Below, one piece after another: positions 1 through 6,965 of a DNA stretch of 6,965 nt; the first letter of the stretch is position 1, and the number at the start of each line of letters is the position of its first letter. The notes under the pieces were generated by a model that saw nothing but the letters and a program-made list of their open reading frames with translations, searched no databases and was not told the origin of the DNA. Both the position numbers and the translations under genes were made by a program. This DNA comes from a virus, in the UHGV virus genome UHGV-0228105; one strand, 5' to 3'.

Positions 1-1825
1 CAATGCGGACCTTCCAGGCCACACCGTCAACAATAAAGCCCTCCTGCTGCTCAAGGTAAGGCTCGTCATTACCGTCAAGATAAGCCACCTCAATTGTGTC
101 CGTTCCCTGTGCTGAAAGCATGTACCATTGCTTATCACTGACTTCATCAAGGCGGGGATCGACAATAATATCCAGTTGTTTGTGGTACGGGTTATATGAA
201 CCACTGTTTGTATCGGCACCAAAAGGCGTGGTTGAGTTAACCATTTGCAACGCTCTGTCTTCCAGAGCCGCTGGAACAAGAAGGAATTTTGGCACAATAT
301 TCAGCACTTCACCGTTTTCATCCCTCTGTGTGCGCATTGCACGGCGTGCAATGCCAAGCCCTGTAGTGCTGACTCCGTTATCAATATCATTTCCGTGTTT
401 TTTGCTGAACAGCGGTATACCGTCAGAAAGCTTTGTGTTTCCTGTCAGCACCAGATGAACCAGATTACCCACCGTTCTGGCGGCTGCTCGCCCCATTGCC
501 TGTGGGATAACTGTTAACTGATTCAGGTCATCGTTAATAATCGCCTGTCGGGTAATGCTGAAAATATTTCCGTAAGTTGCCAGCGCGATTGGTTCGCCAC
601 GGTCACTGGTGGTGATGTATTTATATTCCGCGCCTTCCGGCACTTTGTTTAATGTAGAGAAGCCATTCAGGCCAACACGACGTGCCTCATGGAAGTTTGA
701 CAATGAACCTTTTTTCGTCCACTGGCGGAACGTTTCGCCGCTGTGTTCCCATCCGGCAAGCACGGATTTTTCAGCACCACCAGCAAGGATATAAGTAAAA
801 TCGCTGCTGCTGTGGGTGAATGCCGCGTTTACTATCTGCGAGCGTGTGCTGTAGCTGCCTGTGCTTATGCCGCGATGGGTTAATGATGCCTGCGCCATAT
901 CGAAAAGGCTCATCATGGCGTAAGGGTTGCCGCGTTCTGCCTGCTCGTGCCCAAGACGCGCATTAAGCCCCTGACGCATTGCATCACCCGTTATGTTGCC
1001 GTTATCCGTATATGCGTAGTAAAGATTTGCAGGTGTGGTTTTGTTTGTCGGTGTCGATTCTTTACCCATAGTGAGTAAAAGACGTTCGCGCGCATCCTCA
1101 ACGCTACACCCTGAATCAGCAAGACAACTTATAGCCAGGTCGTTATATCTTCCGTTGAACGTACCGAACAACTCACGGATCCCGTTGAGTCGTTCCTGTT
1201 CTCCGCTGGTAGTTTTCTGGCTGATCATGTTCTTAATATTTTCCGGCATATTTGAAAAATCTCCGATTCGTTTTGATTCAATTCGGGCCATTGCTGTAAT
1301 CGCGGGTATAACCTCGTCTGCGAAGCCGTTAGCCCTGCACTCGTTGCCATCCATCCAGGTTTCCGCCTCCATCATGGCGGTGATTTCCTGTTTGCTCTTC
1401 CCCGTTCTTCCGGCGTAGGTTTCCGCCATCGTGTCGCCCATCTTGTCCATCAGGTCGGCAAAGCGGCGAACATCTCCCGACACTCCGGCTGTAACGCCAC
1501 GGGGGGCGTGTATCATCATCATTGCGTTTTCAGGCATAACGATGTGATCGCCACACATGGCAATAAACGAGGCCATAGAAGCCGCCATACCTTCAATGTG
1601 TACGATTTTTTTTGCCGGATGATTTTTCAGGGCGTTATAGATAGCCAGCCCTTCAAAGATGTCACCACCTGGTGAATGAATGCTCAGATGGATTTCAGAC
1701 ACATTACCGCACGCGTTGATCTCGTCAGTAAGTGCCGATGCCTTTACACCGTACCCGCCGATCTCGTCATAAATGCGCACATGTGCAACATCTGACATAG
1801 CCTTAATGGAAAACCATGTTTTCAT
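1..1825 (-). CDS. ClpP-like (S14) prohead serine protease fused in-frame to a phage major capsid protein; start complete, 3' end runs off the left edge of the window
   Basis: Minus-strand frame is open from the ATG at 1825-1823 down to position 2 (608 codons, no stop). It is absent from the ORF track only because the stop lies outside the window. The N-terminal ~190 aa carry ClpP-type motifs (IHLSIHSPGGDIFEGLAIYNAL; GMAASMASFIAMCGD with a candidate catalytic Ser; MMMIHAPRGVTAG; ECRANGFADEVI). The C-terminal part (TYGNIFSITRQAIINDDLNQLTVIPQAMGRAAARTVGNLV ... PFGADTNSGSYNPY ... EVAYLDGNDEPYLEQQEGFIVDGVAWKVRI) looks like a phage major capsid protein. The start overlaps the upstream stop as ATGA. 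Plus-strand ORFs in 96-1418 are antisense artefacts. Confidence 0.8.
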   Translation of the reverse strand, partial: MKTWFSIKAMSDVAHVRIYDEIGGYGVKASALTDEINACGNVSEIHLSIHSPGGDIFEGLAIYNALKNHPAKKIVHIEGMAASMASFIAMCGDHIVMPENAMMMIHAPRGVTAGVSGDVRRFADLMDKMGDTMAETYAGRTGKSKQEITAMMEAETWMDGNECRANGFADEVIPAITAMARIESKRIGDFSNMPENIKNMISQKTTSGEQERLNGIRELFGTFNGRYNDLAISCLADSGCSVEDARERLLLTMGKESTPTNKTTPANLYYAYTDNGNITGDAMRQGLNARLGHEQAERGNPYAMMSLFDMAQASLTHRGISTGSYSTRSQIVNAAFTHSSSDFTYILAGGAEKSVLAGWEHSGETFRQWTKKGSLSNFHEARRVGLNGFSTLNKVPEGAEYKYITTSDRGEPIALATYGNIFSITRQAIINDDLNQLTVIPQAMGRAAARTVGNLVHLVLTGNTKLSDGIPLFSKKHGNDIDNGVSTTGLGIARRAMRTQRDENGEVLNIVPKFLLVPAALEDRALQMVNSTTPFGADTNSGSYNPYHKQLDIIVDPRLDEVSDKQWYMLSAQGTDTIEVAYLDGNDEPYLEQQEGFIVDGVAWKVRI

Positions 1826-2016
1826 AGCCAGGCTCCTAACGTTGCCTGGTACCAGTATTCAACCGCGCTGCGTGTGATTTGTCCTTTCGTGGGTACTGGC
1901 ATACCCGGGTGATTATCTTTGATGAACTGCTGATAGCGTTCGATCTTCTCCATAGTTCCGGCGTCTATGTGTACCGTGGCACTTTTATCCGGCTTTCTGG
2001 TGTTGTTCTCTGGCAT
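1822..2016 (-). CDS. Small protein (64 aa), possibly ribbon-helix-helix DNA-binding; translationally coupled to the protease-capsid gene
   Basis: ORF-track ORF 1822..2049 (75 aa). The internal ATG at 2016-2014 has a near-ideal Shine-Dalgarno (GGAGGCGGA, 7 nt spacer), so the start is placed there; 2049 is the alternative. Sequence MPENNTRKPDKSATVHIDAGTMEKIERYQQFIKDNHPGMPVPTKGQITRSAVEYWYQATLGAWL fits a strand-helix-loop-helix pattern. Stop TGA overlaps the downstream ATG (ATGA). Confidence 0.55.
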   Translation of the reverse strand: MPENNTRKPDKSATVHIDAGTMEKIERYQQFIKDNHPGMPVPTKGQITRSAVEYWYQATLGAWL

Positions 2017-2211
2017 AAATCCGCCTCCGTTTTGATTAACGGGCATCATTATTGATCGATAAAAGTAATAGATAAATCATTTTCTACCTGAAAATCAGAT
2101 TATGTTTTTTCTGATTATTCTCAGAGAGGCAAAGCCATTGACGCATTTTTGCTATTGAAGCAATATTAAGACTCGTCATCCTGGCGATAAAAACTCCTTT
2201 GTCGTGTAAAA

Positions 2212-2247
2212 GCGCCTCCGGTAACAGCAATCGGGGGCGCTTTTTTT
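2212..2247 (+). terminator. Rho-independent terminator-like hairpin, strongest on the plus strand
   Basis: GCGCCTCCG (2212-2220) / CGGGGGCGC (2232-2240) form a 9-bp stem with one G-U wobble on the plus-strand RNA, 11-nt loop, followed by T7 (2241-2247). On the minus strand the same stem has a C-A mismatch and only a 4-U tail. Confidence 0.45.
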
Positions 2248-2444
2248 GCGCCTGTTTTTTTGTAAATGTTTTCGGGAACGCTCCAGTGATGAACGAAAAA
2301 CAACCTTATTCGACACTAAAAATTTTTATTCCTCAATATATCAATAACTTATAGTGGTGGTGATGGTGCCATAAAAATCAAAAAATGCGCCTTTTTCCGC
2401 GCCCCTCCGCCCCGTGGACAGGCTCACCCCGCCAGGAGGACCCG

Positions 2445-2468
2445 CAAAAAAGCCGGATTGCTCCGGCT
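2445..2468 (-). terminator. Rho-independent terminator of the upstream minus-strand small genes
   Basis: Minus-strand RNA: stem GCCGGA / UCCGGC, or 7 bp if the flanking A-U pair is counted (plus 2451-2457 and 2462-2468), GCAA tetraloop (GNRA type), then a U5-6 tract (plus A-tract 2446-2450). Lies 7 nt downstream of the stop at 2475-2477. Confidence 0.55.
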
Positions 2469-2474
2469 GTGTGA

Positions 2475-2750
2475 TTAGCTGTCCTGGTAATTGCGCCATA
2501 TTTCATCGCTTACACCATCTATACCCATTTCAGCATAAGTGCGATCTACTGCCTTTCTCAGGTCACCGAAGTTATCCGGCGGCTCCGGTGGCCTCTGTGC
2601 CTTCCTGGAACATTCCAGCCGTCGCATCGTAACCTGATGCCGTTCCTTGTCTGTCTCCACCAGCAGCATGACTTCACCCCATCGCGCCGCCGCCCTCCGG
2701 TAAAAGCCTTTCGCCTCGAGTTCCTCCGCTATGCGGTCATGTACCATCAC
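2475..2750 (-). CDS. Small protein (91 aa), tentatively PerC/Pch-family transcriptional activator-like
   Basis: ORF-track ORF; overlaps the upstream ORF by 14 nt and is followed by a terminator. N-terminal segment DRIAEELEAKGFYRRAAARWGEVML matches my recollection of the PerC-family signature (acidic helix then RRAA-RW). This is recalled, not searched. Confidence 0.5.
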   Translation of the reverse strand: MMVHDRIAEELEAKGFYRRAAARWGEVMLLVETDKERHQVTMRRLECSRKAQRPPEPPDNFGDLRKAVDRTYAEMGIDGVSDEIWRNYQDS

Positions 2751-3021
2751 CTGACTCTCCGGTTTTTACGTTGATGGTTGTTACCTGTTCCGCTTCGGCA
2801 ATCTCCCGTTCTGTCATCGTGGCAAAGTTTGCCGACGCCGTGGTCATGAATGCGCTTATCAGTTCGGGATGTTCCTTCGCGTATCCTTCCCCGGCGTGGC
2901 GGTCTATCGTTCTGATTGCCACCTTTAATGCGTGCTCTGTCATGTCTAACGCGCGATATTTCGGTTCTGTTCTGTCTCTGCATTTTTTGAGTGATTTGTT
3001 AAATTTCCCTGAAGTGTGCAT
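2737..3021 (-). CDS. Hypothetical protein (94 aa)
   Basis: ORF-track ORF with protein-like composition. Purine-rich GAGGGGG lies ~11 nt upstream of the ATG at 3021. Sits immediately downstream of the iteron region. A competing 78-aa arginine-rich ORF (2747..2983) in another frame is judged spurious. Confidence 0.5.
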   Translation of the reverse strand: MHTSGKFNKSLKKCRDRTEPKYRALDMTEHALKVAIRTIDRHAGEGYAKEHPELISAFMTTASANFATMTEREIAEAEQVTTINVKTGESGDGT

Positions 3022-3060
3022 TTTTATTTTTACCCCCTCGTTTAAAAAGTTTTGAGTTGT

Positions 3061-3300
3061 ACCTCTCCCCCTCTACCCCTTCTACCCAGCACCACCAAAA
3101 GCCAGCAATGGCGCACCTTTCAGCAGGGTAGAGGGCTTTTAATCCCCTTCTACCCGCCCTCTACCTGTCTACCTGGAATTGATAAAATCAGGTAGAAGAG
3201 GTAGAGGGCTTTTATTAGCCTTCGACCTGGCCCTCTACCCACCTATCATATTGAATAATATATATTTATTTACTTCAGGTAGAGGAGGTAGAGGGCTTTT
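3061..3300. repeat. Iteron array with AT-rich core: candidate origin of replication
   Basis: At least 11 copies of a 9-mer family in both orientations. GGTAGAGGGCTTTT occurs at 3127-3140, 3200-3213 and 3287-3300; degenerate copies GGTAGAAGA at 3191-3199 and GGTAGAGGA at 3278-3286. Inverse copies CCCTCTACC at 3069-3077, 3157-3165 and 3231-3239; CTTCTACCC at 3079-3087 and 3147-3155; TCTACC at 3168-3173. A 30-bp almost pure AT stretch lies at 3245-3275. The array ends 9 nt from the primase stop codon. Confidence 0.6.
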
Positions 3301-3308
3301 GCAAAAAA

Positions 3309-5057
3309 TTATAAAAACGCGTCACAATCGTCTGTTGTTATTGCGTTAGTCTGCGTTACTCCCTTAACTTTCCGAGTAATATATTCATGACCGTAAACTT
3401 TCGCAGCGGGTTTCATAGCTTTGCTGAACTCAGCCACGTTTAGCGGCTTGTTCCTTCCGGCGTATGCCATAAACGCCAGATAGACGCGGTAAAGGCTGTT
3501 TCTGGTCGTGTACCTGGAAGAGTCACCACCACCGCCCATCATCAGGCCGTGCGCTTCCTCCAGAAAATTAAGAAACTGGCAAAACTCAATAACCGGATCC
3601 GTTTGCTGCTTTATCGCCAGTGCTTCATCACCGTCACGCTGTTCCAGTAGTAAAGCCCGCGCCTTTTCAGGGTCGGCAAAGTTCGCCAGTAATCGGCGGA
3701 TAATGACGGGGATTTCAGCCGCGATTTTTTCCGGTAGCTCCCTGTCTTTTTCAGCCTCACTGACGATATTGTCGAAACGGAAAATCACGCGACGACGTGC
3801 CACGCCTCCGGCCCGTTCGGTGAATATCATCGGGTTGTTGTTGGTTGCCAGCACAACCGCCCTGATTACCGCTGTGAAACGCTTCTCATATTTCGGGTTA
3901 ATTTCCACGGGGTCACCGCCCGTGATTTTCTTGATGCCCGTGCCTTCGCCTGTATATTTCGGCTGGTCAGCCAGGACAATAAGCCGACTCCCGACAACCT
4001 GCGCACGCCCACCAGCATCATCAAGCGATGTCATCTCAGCACTTACCGTGTTCTGTTTCCCTGCCAGAAGGCTGGCTATATGCGTAAATGTACTCTTGCC
4101 GCTCCCGCCCTCTCCTGTGGCCTCAATAAACATCTGCCAGTCGTACCGGTTCGCCATAATCATGTACAGCGCGGCACATATACGCATCATCTTGCGCGGG
4201 TCTTTTCCGGCTGCGTGCTCAAGCCATTTATGAAAGTTTGGCGCGTTGTCGCGAATGTTCTCCCCTGGTGCTGGTGGCGTGTACTCAATGCCGTTGTGCG
4301 TGGTGATCCAGTTCTCCGGCGTGTGCGGGGAAAACTCCCCCGTTTTCAGGTCAAGCGCACCATTGGCGAACGGCAGCAAATCGCCGGACGGCTCGCCCAT
4401 TGGTTCGGCAATAACTTTTAACGCTTCCACGGCGTTATTGATTACGCGCTTGCTGAACGTGGCTTTATGTTCTGAATAAATCGCCACCATTTCGCGGCTC
4501 AGCTCCATTGTGCTGACCGGGCACCATACCCCGCCGCGCCAGATGTGGACGATTTCACTTTCCGGATCCACACAAACGCCATCAAATCGACCAGCAAGCA
4601 TCTGTGCGCGCTCACTGTCTGCCATTTGTGCCAGTTGCGTATTTTTCTGCTCCGGCATGGTAATCCCTGCGGCAATATTTTCACGCTCAGCATTCAGATA
4701 GCGCCGCCAGTTTTCACACTTCTGACCGTGCATTCCTTCTGGGTAAAAATTCGCATCCTGAATATCTGCCACCGCCAGCTTCTGACCAATCTTTTTGGTC
4801 TCCACTAAATCCAGTTCTCCGGCCTGGTACAGCCTTACGCGCTTTTTCCCATCCGGAACAATTTTCAGCGCATCAAGTTCGGCAAGCTGCTTTGGCCCAA
4901 GCCACACAGGCGGCACATTATCGCCGGATGCGGGGCCATCCTGTTCCTGCCATTGTTCCGCGTGTGACCAGGCATCACTACCCGCAAAGATAATTACCTC
5001 TGTGTCTTTGTGTTTTATTCCGCGTGGCTGTTTTTTTACGTTCGGTGCCAGTTTCAC
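3309..5057 (-). CDS. Primase-helicase / replication initiator of the D5 / P4-alpha (SF3 NTPase) family, 582 aa
   Basis: Long ORF-track ORF. Walker A GEGGSGKST followed by a hydrophobic stretch ending in acidic residue (RLIVLADQ), typical of phage/plasmid primase C-terminal NTPase domains. Start is GTG at 5057-5055 with AGGGG ~8 nt upstream, overlapping the upstream stop (GTGA). Stop TAA at 3311-3309. An N-terminal primase catalytic motif is not recognisable by eye. Confidence 0.88.
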   Translation of the reverse strand: MKLAPNVKKQPRGIKHKDTEVIIFAGSDAWSHAEQWQEQDGPASGDNVPPVWLGPKQLAELDALKIVPDGKKRVRLYQAGELDLVETKKIGQKLAVADIQDANFYPEGMHGQKCENWRRYLNAERENIAAGITMPEQKNTQLAQMADSERAQMLAGRFDGVCVDPESEIVHIWRGGVWCPVSTMELSREMVAIYSEHKATFSKRVINNAVEALKVIAEPMGEPSGDLLPFANGALDLKTGEFSPHTPENWITTHNGIEYTPPAPGENIRDNAPNFHKWLEHAAGKDPRKMMRICAALYMIMANRYDWQMFIEATGEGGSGKSTFTHIASLLAGKQNTVSAEMTSLDDAGGRAQVVGSRLIVLADQPKYTGEGTGIKKITGGDPVEINPKYEKRFTAVIRAVVLATNNNPMIFTERAGGVARRRVIFRFDNIVSEAEKDRELPEKIAAEIPVIIRRLLANFADPEKARALLLEQRDGDEALAIKQQTDPVIEFCQFLNFLEEAHGLMMGGGGDSSRYTTRNSLYRVYLAFMAYAGRNKPLNVAEFSKAMKPAAKVYGHEYITRKVKGVTQTNAITTDDCDAFL

Positions 5058-5353
5058 TTTTTGCCCCTGAATCCGTTAATCATGTTTTTCATCTTCTGAA
5101 TATTGGCGCGTGCTTTCTCCCCGCTGGTTGGCTTACTGCGGGGCGCTGCCTGTACCAGAGAAAAATCACGCCGGAACTGATAAACAGGCATCACGCAATC
5201 ATATTCGTAGCCTTCACGGCGGTAAGTGACGCGCCGATCCTCCACTCCCTTAATCATTACCGTGCCACCGTACTGGTCGCGGTAAATATCGCCGCGCGTA
5301 AATTTAGGGTGAGTGTTGCCACTGGCAGTTAAGCCAGAAATTTTCTTTTTCAT
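5054..5353 (-). CDS. Hypothetical small basic protein (99 aa)
   Basis: ORF-track ORF. ATG at 5353-5351 lies 5 nt after the stop of the upstream ORF; its own stop overlaps the primase GTG start. Sequence MKKKISGLTASGNTHPKFTRGDIYRDQYGGTVMIKGVEDRRVTYRREGYEYDCVMPVYQF... has no family I can name. Confidence 0.55.
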   Translation of the reverse strand: MKKKISGLTASGNTHPKFTRGDIYRDQYGGTVMIKGVEDRRVTYRREGYEYDCVMPVYQFRRDFSLVQAAPRSKPTSGEKARANIQKMKNMINGFRGKK

Positions 5354-5358
5354 GGTTT

Positions 5359-5586
5359 TTATTCCGCGTTTATTTTTTTATCGTGAATTTCGATCGCTTT
5401 ATTTAATTCGGTGATTACCGTATCGAGTAATGAAATAAACGCACCAGCAAGATTAGATTCACGTTCATCTTCCGGCGCATCACTTAAACCATCCAGCCAG
5501 ATAAGCAATATTTGCCGCAAGCATTCACTGTTAGTCAGTGCGTTTTCTGCATGGCTCATTGATTTAAAATAATGGTCATCATGCAT
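5359..5586 (-). CDS. Hypothetical small acidic protein (75 aa from the proposed start)
   Basis: ORF-track ORF 5359..5631. Start moved to the ATG at 5586-5584 (MHDDHYFK...), which has AGGGG upstream and overlaps the upstream stop (ATGCATGA). Confidence 0.5.
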   Translation of the reverse strand: MHDDHYFKSMSHAENALTNSECLRQILLIWLDGLSDAPEDERESNLAGAFISLLDTVITELNKAIEIHDKKINAE

Positions 5587-5815
5587 GGTGCGCCCCTTGA
5601 ATATCTGCGGTAAGAATTTTACCTGCCTCATTCAGCGCCATATCAGCACTAAGTTGCATAACCGCCAGCGAATGAGGAACGAAAGCCCCTGCATATTCTG
5701 TTTCACTGGTGGCGTGCTTATGCGCCCTGTCAGCAATAACAGAAATATCAATAAGCGCGAGCATCAGCGTAGTGAGCGCGGCGGCGGTTGCGTCCGGACG
5801 GATGTTATTGCACAT
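5579..5815 (-). CDS. Hypothetical small protein (78 aa from the proposed start)
   Basis: ORF-track ORF 5579..5872. Start placed at the ATG at 5815-5813 (MCNNIRPD...), preceded by GGAGGGG with an 8-nt spacer and overlapping the upstream stop at 5807-5805. The upstream ATG at 5872 lacks a Shine-Dalgarno. Confidence 0.5.
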   Translation of the reverse strand: MCNNIRPDATAAALTTLMLALIDISVIADRAHKHATSETEYAGAFVPHSLAVMQLSADMALNEAGKILTADIQGAHHA

Positions 5816-6038
5816 GGTGTACCCCTCCGCATTTTTTTTCGTTAGAAATAAGCGTTCTTCTTTCCTGTTCATCGCTCAGGAATACGCAGACCTCACCGCT
5901 AAGGCGTTTAAGTAAGCCGATGATTGCCCCTGATTCGCTGTCGGTCATCATGCCAGGGTAATCCTCTGCCAGTGCGCAAATAACTTCGATTTGGTGGGCG
6001 CGTTCTGCTGCCTGTTGTAGTGTGATTTCCTGGCTCAT
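5805..6038 (-). CDS. Hypothetical small protein (77 aa from the proposed start)
   Basis: ORF-track ORF 5805..6095. Start placed at the ATG at 6038-6036 (MSQEITLQQAAERAHQIEV...), preceded by AGGAGGT at about -8 and overlapping the upstream stop as ATGA. Confidence 0.55.
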   Translation of the reverse strand: MSQEITLQQAAERAHQIEVICALAEDYPGMMTDSESGAIIGLLKRLSGEVCVFLSDEQERRTLISNEKKCGGVHHVQ

Positions 6039-6229
6039 AAGCCTACCTCCTGACGAATACGGGCGGCAAATACAGCAACACAACCGGACGGGCAACGGTT
6101 ACGCGCTTCGCGTTCCGTCCAGGCGGTTACGTGGATGATTTGAGATTCTCCGGCACTCAGGGCCAGAAAACGCCACACAAAGGCCGTTTGTGTGTGTGCT
6201 AGTCGTGGAGTATGATTTACGGCAACCAT
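6035..6229 (-). CDS. Hypothetical small protein (64 aa), first gene of the minus-strand operon
   Basis: ORF-track ORF. GAGAGGT Shine-Dalgarno ~9 nt upstream of the ATG at 6229. Contains a Cys pair (RNRCPSGC). Lies ~95 nt downstream of the predicted promoter. Confidence 0.5.
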   Translation of the reverse strand: MVAVNHTPRLAHTQTAFVWRFLALSAGESQIIHVTAWTEREARNRCPSGCVAVFAARIRQEVGL

Positions 6230-6308
6230 AAATTTACCTCTCTATAGTGTTTGTGGTTAGAGGCCCTGCTAGTGGTAGCGACACTTGCGGGGCTTTGCAT
6301 TTATGAAC

Positions 6309-6361
6309 CCTGAGCAGCTCAGGTGTGGCCCACTATATGTTTTAGGTGTGGCCCACGTCAA
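6309..6361 (-). promoter_or_regulatory. Control region: predicted sigma70-like promoter for the minus-strand operon, overlapped by a perfect palindrome and two 13-bp direct repeats
   Basis: On the minus strand: -35 TTGACG (plus 6356-6361), 18-nt spacer, -10 TATAGT (plus 6332-6337). Direct repeats AGGTGTGGCCCAC at 6321-6333 and 6344-6356, each containing GTGG-N-CCAC, with 23 bp between starts. Perfect palindrome CCTGAGC-A-GCTCAGG at 6309-6323, at or just downstream of the predicted start site. Confidence 0.45.
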
Positions 6362-6422
6362 GGGTTTTATTTGCGCTTTTTCTGTGTATACTGTCCCCCA
6401 CCAATCAACAGGAGAAACAGCA

Positions 6423-6602
6423 ATGGCAACGGGTACAACAAACGCAAAATCACAAGCTTTAAAGGCTCGTGTACCGCATGAAATAGTTGACGCAATGGAA
6501 TCAGTGAAAGACTCAGGCGAAAGCACATCACAATTTATCATTACGTCAATGCAAGGCGAGATCAAACGCCGCCAGCGCCGCAAGGCCAAAGAAGCGGAAT
6601 AA
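6423..6602 (+). CDS. Small ribbon-helix-helix (CopG/Arc-like) DNA-binding protein, 59 aa; candidate repressor
   Basis: ATG at 6423 preceded by AGGAGA (6410-6415, 7-nt spacer). Sequence MATGTTNAKSQALKARVPHEIVDAMESVKDSGESTSQFIITSMQGEIKRRQRRKAKEAE fits strand (LKARVP), helix (HEIVDAMESVKDSG), helix (STSQFIITSMQGEI). It is the only plus-strand gene, divergent from the operon and convergent with alpA. The overlapping 153-aa minus ORF (6269..6730) is judged spurious. Confidence 0.55.
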   Translation: MATGTTNAKSQALKARVPHEIVDAMESVKDSGESTSQFIITSMQGEIKRRQRRKAKEAE

Positions 6603-6690
6603 TCCACCAGCAAACCACCACACTGATCACATTGCCCACCAGCCAGCAAATCGCTATGATGTTCGGGCTTATGTTTAGTGTTTTCCCATT

Positions 6691-6721
6691 GGCGACCTCT
6701 GATCCGGGTCGCCTTTGTTTT
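6691..6721 (+). terminator. Rho-independent terminator downstream of the RHH gene
   Basis: GGCGACC (6691-6697) / GGTCGCC (6707-6713) form a 7-bp perfect stem with a 9-nt loop, followed by TTTGTTTT (6714-6721). No U-tract on the minus-strand side, so it is unidirectional. Confidence 0.5.
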
Positions 6722-6740
6722 ATGTGTCATATGCTCCCCT

Positions 6741-6965
6741 TTACGCTGCCTTACCTGAATTAATGCGATCCCGGCTTTTAACCCATTCCATAACCTCGGA
6801 CAGCAGCCAACCTACAGAACGACCGCCCAGATTAAGGCGTGACGGAAATCGCCCTTTTTTCTCCAGTTCGTAGCGTGTAGTACGGCACACTCCAGTTAAC
6901 TTACGACATTCATCCTCACGGATTACGCGATCTGATAGTGATTGAAATTGTGTATTTTGATTCAT
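6741..6965 (-). CDS. alpA: AlpA-family (MerR-type HTH, excisionase-like) transcriptional regulator
   Basis: Translation contains the AlpA-type core CRKLTGVCRTTRYELEKKGRFPSRLNLGGRSVGWLLSEVMEWVKSR (compare the recalled pattern L-x-R-S-T-I-Y-x-L-x-x-G-x-FP-x-P-x-x-LGGR-x-V-GW-x-x-SE-V-x-x-W). The ATG falls exactly at the window edge (6965-6963), so the true N-terminus could lie outside the window. Confidence 0.85.
   Translation of the reverse strand: MNQNTQFQSLSDRVIREDECRKLTGVCRTTRYELEKKGRFPSRLNLGGRSVGWLLSEVMEWVKSRDRINSGKAA

Follow-up and report, generated by a model that had tools for sequence, protein, structure and literature searches.

A common phage-inducible chromosomal island of Escherichia coli with a fused protease/scaffold/capsid gene between two helper-type cos-like sites

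The 6,965-nucleotide stretch of DNA recorded as UHGV virus genome UHGV-0228105 (referred to as the window, by which the whole of the analysed stretch is meant) is best explained as part of a classical Gram-negative phage-inducible chromosomal island (PICI) of Escherichia coli. According to this explanation, to which a probability of about 0.72 is assigned, the element has a backbone of the EcCICFT073 type and its helpers are lambdoid siphophages of the mEp460/cdtI/Stx type; the further reading in which its capsid gene supplies a productive head subunit is held at slightly less than even odds. The island itself is ordinary: it belongs to a catalogued class of E. coli PICIs that is very common, and it is a somewhat diverged allele. 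A preliminary description made from the window alone had recognized a PICI, and the integrase, att repeats, alpA gene, primase, origin, cos-like sites and size of approximately 10 kb now support that recognition; the further suggestion that the element belongs to the capsid-forming satellites did not survive the comparisons reported below.

The boundaries of the element can be read from a near-identical relative, L008, which is an 11.9-kb metagenome contig that contains the entire window sequence, at 99.97% identity over the whole window. In this contig a 31-bp direct repeat at position 577 recurs at position 10610, which gives the island a size of 10.06 kb, and the window corresponds to its central 7 kb. 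To the right of the window-equivalent lie a 239-aa gene and a tyrosine integrase gene (640-1860), so that the integrase and att repeats which the preliminary description had expected on that side are indeed present. The same description placed portal, terminase and head-completion genes beyond the left edge, but in L008 the full-length fusion gene is followed by nothing more than the second of two cos-like sites, a shortened 93-aa gene and the attR repeat, after which comes a chromosomal thiM-like gene, with the end of the island approximately 0.9 kb beyond the capsid gene. The insertion site is chromosomal, between a metal-repressor gene and the thiM-like gene. Direct repeats of 31, 18 and 16 bp delimit islands of 10.06-10.35 kb in L008, L005 and L003, respectively, and the integrase end is likewise present in L005 and L003.

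Gram-negative PICIs are defined by the possession of an integrase, alpA, a primase-replicase with an adjacent origin, a capsid-morphogenesis gene and either terS or a cos site, in a unit of approximately 10 kb that otherwise contains no structural or lysis genes (PMC6092414; PMC10085698). In addition to the integrase and the att repeats at a bacterial site, the island has an alpA gene at the head of an operon that runs in one direction, in that all of the window genes are on the minus strand except for one 59-aa gene. The alpA gene (6741..6965, minus strand; L008 2668-2892) is complete, encodes 74 amino acids (PF05930, E = 2e-16) and has its ATG at the very end of the window; its product is probably the excision and induction switch. 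The primase-helicase of the D5 or P4-alpha type (3309..5057, minus strand, 582 aa) matches D5_N (1.6e-14), DUF5906 (2.5e-10), Pox_D5 (7.9e-5) and TIGR01613 (1e-31), the last of which represents the C-terminus of P4-family primases. Directly 3' of this gene is a predicted replication origin (3068..3296) with ten iterons of the form GGTAGARGRG, which are arranged in both orientations around an AT-rich core and begin 13 nt past the primase stop codon. The expected number of such iterons by chance is 0.78, and a count of ten was reached in none of 200 shuffles; the origin repeats fall into families D1, D2, D4, I2 and I3. The combination of alpA, a primase-helicase and an adjacent iteron origin indicates that the island has a replicon of its own. 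The capsid-morphogenesis gene is the fusion, and in the place of terS, which is absent, there are two helper-type cos-like sites. The gene order described earlier, from alpA through the small genes, the primase-helicase, the iterons on its 3' side and the 64-aa gene to the partial fusion gene, was thus recovered in full by Pfam and NCBIfam searches and the repeat count. The presence of a capsid gene is in keeping with the class, since such a gene is a core component of PICIs in Proteobacteria (PMC10085698) and is the commonest late gene of the reference Gram-negative PICIs, 21 of 29 of which carry one (PMC10111431); a CLP_protease late gene, too, has been reported in PICIs before (PMC10111431).

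Equally informative are the genes that the island does not contain. Portal, large terminase, connector, tail and lysis genes are absent from the gene tables of approximately 20 related contexts, and HNH packaging genes and TerS are absent from the complete contexts of lineage A. In lineage B, which is represented by an island beside a tRNA-Ile gene of E. coli HS13-1 (L016, 4053-14110), there is neither a portal nor a large terminase, and of the TerS, TerL and HNH genes only a DUF1441 TerS homologue occurs. These absences bear on the capsid-forming class, in which a full head and packaging module is encoded and only tails are borrowed, and in which the portal and terminase genes would have had to lie beyond the left edge of the window. 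Capsid-forming PICIs such as EcCIEDL933 resemble the island in their int/alpA/rep half, which is of the PICI type, and in the possession of their own protease and major capsid protein (10.1101/2022.09.08.507074), which in the island are fused in one gene. However, they also encode a portal, head-tail connectors, HNH, TerS and TerL, are about 15.4 kb long and form their own small capsids (10.1101/2022.09.08.507074), whereas the island encodes no portal, connector, HNH, TerS or TerL. Because portal, terminase and connector genes are missing from the complete contexts, including every one examined for a portal and a head-tail adaptor or connector, and because the island is 10 kb long rather than 15.4 kb, it is not placed among the capsid-forming PICIs; this class is refuted for the near-identical L008 and is very improbable for the window.

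The fusion gene (2..1825, minus strand) is open in the window, where it runs off the left edge after 608 residues; the full-length protein in L008 has 626 residues, the last 18 of which lie outside the window. Residues 1-180 (1286..1825, minus strand) constitute a ClpP-like prohead protease domain (PF00574, 4e-33; NF045542, 9e-60), residues 181-300 (926..1285, minus strand) a helical scaffold-like linker that was delineated from alignments, and residues 301-608 (2..925, minus strand) a major capsid domain of the Mu-gpT or Phage_capsid_4 family (PF25209, 4.8e-49; PF10124, 2.5e-10). The CLP_protease match itself spans residues 42-173 and the Phage_capsid_4 match residues 331-607. As a whole the protein matches the NCBIfam family NF045540, named "ClpP-like prohead protease/major capsid protein fusion", at 2.6e-259 and phrog_133 at 1e-272. 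The protease domain matches solved ClpP chains at about 1e-14 and retains the ClpP-type motifs GMAASMAS and MMIHAP, which hold the catalytic Ser and His, while a profile of the C-terminal domain reaches the solved Mu-GpT-family capsid proteins 8rkc, 8rkx and 9jod at about 3e-9. An AlphaFold2 model built on a 15-sequence alignment had a predicted local distance difference test score (pLDDT) of 44, and the capsid-fold claim rests instead on the hidden Markov model and PDB-profile matches. The earlier reading of the 608-aa protein as a protease-capsid fusion is confirmed by these matches. Neither a failure of the protein to match capsid and protease domains nor flanks that belong to a full prophage, both of which the preliminary description had named as outcomes that would count against it, was encountered.

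The fusion is under purifying selection in all three of its domains. In comparisons of satellite alleles that are approximately 11% apart in DNA, the ratio of nonsynonymous to synonymous substitution rates (dN/dS) is 0.11 overall. Across the three domains it spans 0.06-0.13, the capsid domain being at 0.12, the protease at 0.09-0.10 and the linker at 0.06-0.07, and for the helper-lineage fusion it is 0.17. Of 5426 complete E. coli genomes, 143 contain a near-full-length match to the fusion; none of the gene copies listed carries a pseudogene flag. A Pro/Ala-rich segment of 30-35 residues between the protease and the scaffold (at about residues 200-210) occurs in all of the helper proteins examined and is missing from both satellite lineages, and by this alignment the shortening of the linker is a change that is shared by the satellites and specific to them.

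Immediately upstream of the fusion is a satellite-specific gene of 64 codons (1822..2016, minus strand; phrog_4934, 6.6e-42). Because its TGA overlaps the ATG of the fusion gene (ATGA), the two genes are probably translationally coupled. The exact 64-aa protein was found in 1782 index blocks, and it stands directly upstream of the fusion in all ten of the contexts shown. It is 36% identical to a 68-aa protein at the equivalent position in lineage B, while in the helper phages examined (mEp460, 1720a-02 and the O157 prophage) this position is occupied by the portal gene. The protein had been called "RHH-like" (ribbon-helix-helix), which is plausible but could not be established, in that it has no Pfam match and its single-sequence model contains two helices only, at a pLDDT of 65. 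Searches of the PDB with the sequences of the 64/75-aa proteins gave no meaningful match. On the evidence of its domains, its linker and its pattern of substitution, the fusion appears to be a maintained, satellite-adapted version of a one-gene head kit of the helper phages.

Three independent lines of evidence point to the identity of these helpers, which would be lambdoid siphophages whose head is built from a single fused protease/scaffold/capsid polypeptide. The head protein of mEp460, cdtI, 1720a-02, CP-1639, VT1-Sakai and several Stx2 phages matches the island fusion at 50-52% identity over 99% of its length (tblastn), and global alignment of the fusion with the helper head protein gives 52-55% identity, so that the capsid gene is, to judge from these alignments, a diverged copy of the helper's single-gene head kit. 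In the helpers the gene order is terS, terL, a head-tail joining gene, the portal gene and then the fusion. A megablast search of the whole window against phage records gave zero matches. In one relative (L015, 3542-13429, of the E. coli O157:H7 strain 3-5-1) the island lies inside the terL gene of a lambdoid prophage; the fusion of this island is 91% identical to that of the window, and the head gene of the prophage which surrounds it encodes a 659-aa fusion. This arrangement is the helper-embedded PICI configuration, here in a Shiga-toxin-producing lineage.

The packaging signals of the island also resemble those of the same phages. Two putative cos sites were located by comparison with the region upstream of terS in mEp460, and they are of a type that differs from lambda cosN; a scan of the window for exact or near-exact copies of lambda cosN gave a single match with 2 mismatches, which lies in the primase gene and is no more than chance would produce. 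Site A (2243..2447, minus strand) consists of a 65-nt core (2383-2447) and a flank of the TerS-binding type (2243-2382), and site B (L008 9715-9919, with its core at 9715-9779) lies outside the window, 2529 bp from site A. The two sites are direct repeats that bracket the cassette formed by the 64-aa gene and the fusion. The core is GC-rich and includes ACGGGGCGG, which occurs at lambda cosN as well. In the helper phages the counterpart of the core is just upstream of terS, and the identity between the island cores and this helper sequence is 82-92%, with values of 89-91% for core A against 1720a-02 and the O157 helper prophage.

The cores of the two sites are approximately 90% alike, but the 140-nt flanks downstream of them are only 62% identical, and it is in the stretch downstream of the core that TerS binds in lambda-type cos sites. 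Flank A matches, at 91-92% over 100 nt, 1720a-02, CP-1639 and ASU11 only, apart from a weak match to phi458 (75% over about half of the query). For flank B the only matches are VT1-Sakai and eight Stx2 phages (77-79% over about 130 nt), apart from a partial match to Fels-1, and this flank is 77.5% identical to that of the O157 helper prophage. The TerS proteins of the two helper subgroups are 52% identical over residues 1-66, 88% identical over residues 67-100 and 100% identical over residues 101-158; if they resemble lambda Nu1, DNA binding would reside in the N-terminal part. Because the flanks of sites A and B match different helper subgroups, it is suggested that the two sites serve as separate packaging signals, each suited to a different helper terminase specificity. 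Since the sites retain flanks of the helper's TerS-binding type, neither a TerS nor an Rpp adaptor would be needed by the island; Rpp was considered as a packaging adaptor and rejected, there being no Rpp-like gene of 144-153 aa, and none of the island proteins matches RppA by BLASTP. Four copies of the island amount to 40.3 kb, or to 42.8 kb if the DNA runs from cos A to cos B and so includes a further 2.5 kb, and both lengths fit a helper head of 44-47 kb as estimated from helper record lengths. Lengths of 12.6 kb and 20 kb are close to what simple volume calculations give for T=3 and T=4 shells; these figures are arithmetic rather than evidence and are compatible with either helper-size or small heads.

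Taken in sequence, the cycle that would follow from these features is that the helper activates alpA and the island then excises and replicates as concatemers, as would be expected from PICIs of the EcCICFT073 type, after which the helper terminase would cut and package the island DNA at the cos sites, with either of two terminase specificities probably being adequate. Subunits of the satellite fusion would be built into heads on helper portals, either by themselves or together with helper subunits, in the manner of the SaPIbov5 Ccm protein, and would thereby bias head assembly towards the satellite. The part of this scheme in which the fusion is a productive head subunit, as opposed to a relic or a pure poison, is held tentatively, at slightly less than even odds, and draws on the analogy with SaPIbov5 Ccm and with PmCI172, for which small capsids have been observed.

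If the capsid gene were captured cargo, a helper late gene carried as a redundant or reserve copy without a needed role, then the island would travel as about four copies in unmodified helper heads, for which the 40.3-kb and 42.8-kb lengths are suitable; repeated capture of helper late genes by PICIs has been proposed (PMC10111431), and in EcCICFT073 the deletion of c1499 or c1500 was without phenotype, with packaging of the island DNA at phage size (PMC6092414). A useless copy, however, would be expected to decay, and cargo is disfavoured because the fusion is instead under purifying selection, with a dN/dS of approximately 0.1 in all three domains despite 45% divergence from the helpers. The linker deletion common to two satellite lineages, the coupled satellite-only 64-aa gene that accompanies the fusion, and the persistence of the cassette while replication and integration modules are swapped around it also argue against cargo, which is considered somewhat unlikely. 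Interference alone, in which the satellite protein would poison or mis-size helper heads to the benefit of the host and would have no part in satellite particles, is rated as quite unlikely. Interference with helpers is indeed usual among PICIs, SaPIbov5 blocks its helper through the change of capsid size that Ccm brings about, and an altered scaffold linker could disturb assembly; but the retention of the catalytic motifs together with purifying selection on every domain suggests a working, maturing subunit, and PADLOC detected no defence-family match.

A stronger form of the productive-subunit reading would treat the lineage as intermediate between classical and capsid-forming satellites, such that the fusion, with its shortened satellite-specific linker, and the coupled 64-aa gene build the island's own and possibly smaller shells on stolen portals and the two cos sites act as a signal of dual specificity; this is thought unlikely. 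It is scarcely credible that the element is a decayed prophage remnant with a leftover head gene. The head gene and cos sites are of phage origin, as they would be in such a remnant, but the unit is constant at approximately 10 kb, is bounded by att repeats at several unrelated sites, one of them inside an otherwise complete-looking prophage, and has intact genes that include alpA and its own primase and iteron replicon.

Several considerations weigh against the preferred explanation, that of an EcCICFT073-type PICI whose fusion is a productive head subunit. The deletion of the EcCICFT073 capsid gene c1499 affected neither transfer nor interference, and packaging took place in phage-sized heads (PMC6092414), although c1499 appears from sequence comparison to belong to a capsid family that is unrelated to the island fusion. 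It is uncertain whether subunits that are 52-55% identical would co-assemble. The PICI assignment rests on genes and sequence, from which induction, packaging and capsid formation are all inferred, and the identity of the cos sites rests on position and similarity rather than on mapped DNA ends. Finally, no sigma-70-like promoter was found by a simple scan of the coding strand upstream of the 64-aa gene (window 2050-2470). A terminator-like hairpin also precedes the capsid cassette, and an activator or antitermination may be required for its genes to be expressed. The hairpin, which resembles an intrinsic terminator and has a T-run (2451..2468, minus strand), is placed directly after the PerC gene and directly before the cos region and thus before the capsid cassette.

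Among the known systems the closest in backbone is EcCICFT073, the prototype Gram-negative PICI (PMC6092414; PMC6739421), which has the same order of int, alpA, small genes, primase, iteron origin, PerC, a small gene and a capsid gene, with a 93-aa gene at its end. Its PerC is 79% identical to that of the island over the 68 residues compared and its terminal 93-aa protein, in the same position, is 73% identical; both elements have two cos sites, no terS and a length of about 10 kb. They differ in the capsid gene, which in EcCICFT073 (c1499) is of the lambda-E type with a decoration gene after it and has no BLASTP match to the island fusion, and in packaging, for which EcCICFT073 has RppA together with lambda-type cosN sites, two in number, that lie on either side of rppA in opposite orientations, while the island has no Rpp and has cos direct repeats of the mEp460/Stx-phage type around the capsid cassette, with the helper-like flanks kept. 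The closest parallel for the role of the capsid gene is SaPIbov5, which is likewise a cos-packaged satellite with a helper cos and with a homologue of the helper major capsid protein as its sole head gene (Carpena 2016; PMC8569155). SaPIbov5 is nevertheless a Gram-positive element of unrelated sequence, its Ccm lacks a fused protease, and size redirection is proven for it, whereas for the island it would be by analogy only; the island fusion is homologous to the helper capsid protein at 52-55% identity.

The PICIs surveyed in PMC10111431 share with the island a four-zone organisation and captured helper late genes. They include PICIs at tRNA-Ile2 with a CLP_protease gene, to which L016 corresponds in its location at a tRNA-Ile gene but from which it differs in the possession of an alpA-like helix-turn-helix gene, and helper-embedded PICIs inserted in terminase genes, as L015 is inserted in terL; the island in L008, by comparison, lies at a chromosomal site and not in a late gene of a helper prophage. 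The dual cos flanks and the fusion protein were not analysed in PMC10111431. With P4 the island has in common only the alpA family and the P4-family primase C-terminus; it has no sid, psu or delta, and the Pfam families of the genes scanned are AlpA, DUF4222, D5_N/DUF5906, PerC, ClpP and capsid only, the remaining scanned genes being without a Pfam match and assigned solely to PHROGs of unknown function.

As a further allele of E. coli satellites that are very common and already catalogued, the window by itself changes little. It is, however, an acknowledged question what a lone capsid gene does for Gram-negative PICIs, and another why some of them have two cos sites; the lineage provides testable handles on both, in the form of a self-contained head gene and of two cos sites with flanks of separate helper subgroups. 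If the dual specificity of the cos sites is real, then one island can exploit two terminase types, and the occurrence of two cos sites in some PICIs would be explained as far as this lineage is concerned. Islands of this kind are present in Shiga-toxin-producing E. coli (O157:H7, O145, O111 and O103), and since the apparent helpers include Stx-converting phages, the islands may influence the yield and spread of these phages.

The relatives of the island show how consistently its late end is maintained. The primase protein of the window is encoded residue for residue on 14 public contigs. The ending of L008, namely the 64-aa gene, the fusion, the 93-aa gene and the end of the island, recurs in eight contexts that share the exact primase and in ten that share the exact 64-aa gene, and it is also seen in the annotated complete genomes L001, L002 and L015. 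Insertion sites of at least four kinds were found (cspD/clpS, beside a yejM-like gene, between the repressor and thiM, and inside a prophage), and the late cassette of the 64-aa gene, the fusion and the 93-aa gene is paired either with a D5-type primase or with an AAA_25 helicase. When L018, L022 and L025 are compared with L017 and L019, the same late cassette is accompanied by other replication modules, integrases and insertion sites, which is a pattern of modular shuffling. The fusion of the lineage B island L016 has 637 residues and is 63% identical to that of the window, and its DUF1441 TerS homologue, which is located between the fusion and the 93-aa gene, is 64% identical to the TerS of mEp460. 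Of the terminal 93-aa backbone gene only 47 aa are left in L008 (9947-10090); the gene is intact in L005 (15372-15653), in sister islands and in EcCICFT073; its product has a strongly basic C-terminus. The idea that it encodes a decoration protein was rejected, as it is unlike the helper gene that follows the fusion and is a backbone gene held in common with EcCICFT073.

Two features of the window were additional to the preliminary description, these being the cos-like site at 2243-2447 and the gene for a PerC-family transcriptional activator (2475..2750, minus strand, 91 aa; PF06069, 2.4e-45), which is positioned between the replication module and the cos/capsid cassette. Another E. coli PICI, EcCIMP1, is reported to repress the LEE pathogenicity island (PMC11773190). 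Next to the PerC gene is a 94-aa gene (2737..3021, minus strand) that is known only as a PHROG family (phrog_1231, 1.4e-49) and whose product has no Pfam, PDB or PADLOC match. A 99-aa DUF4222 gene (5054..5353, minus strand; PF13973, 3.6e-24) overlaps the start of the primase gene. Beyond it is the variable zone of the island, a block of four small overlapping genes of 64, 77, 78 and 75 aa (5359..6229, minus strand), which are open reading frames that match the gene calls of L008 and belong to PHROGs of unknown function; PADLOC gave no match for these four and detected no defence families among the small genes generally. A search of the window against Rfam at E <= 0.1 returned nothing, including RNAs of the C4 or isrK type. 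The only gene on the plus strand (6423..6602, 59 aa; phrog_949, 4.9e-23) is of the YlcI/YnfO family in relatives, the homologous stretch of L001 being annotated as YlcI/YnfO. In the divergent region between this gene and the leftward operon there is a perfect 13-nt direct repeat, AGGTGTGGCCCAC, with two copies at a spacing of 23 nt (window 6321-6356), which is a candidate operator.

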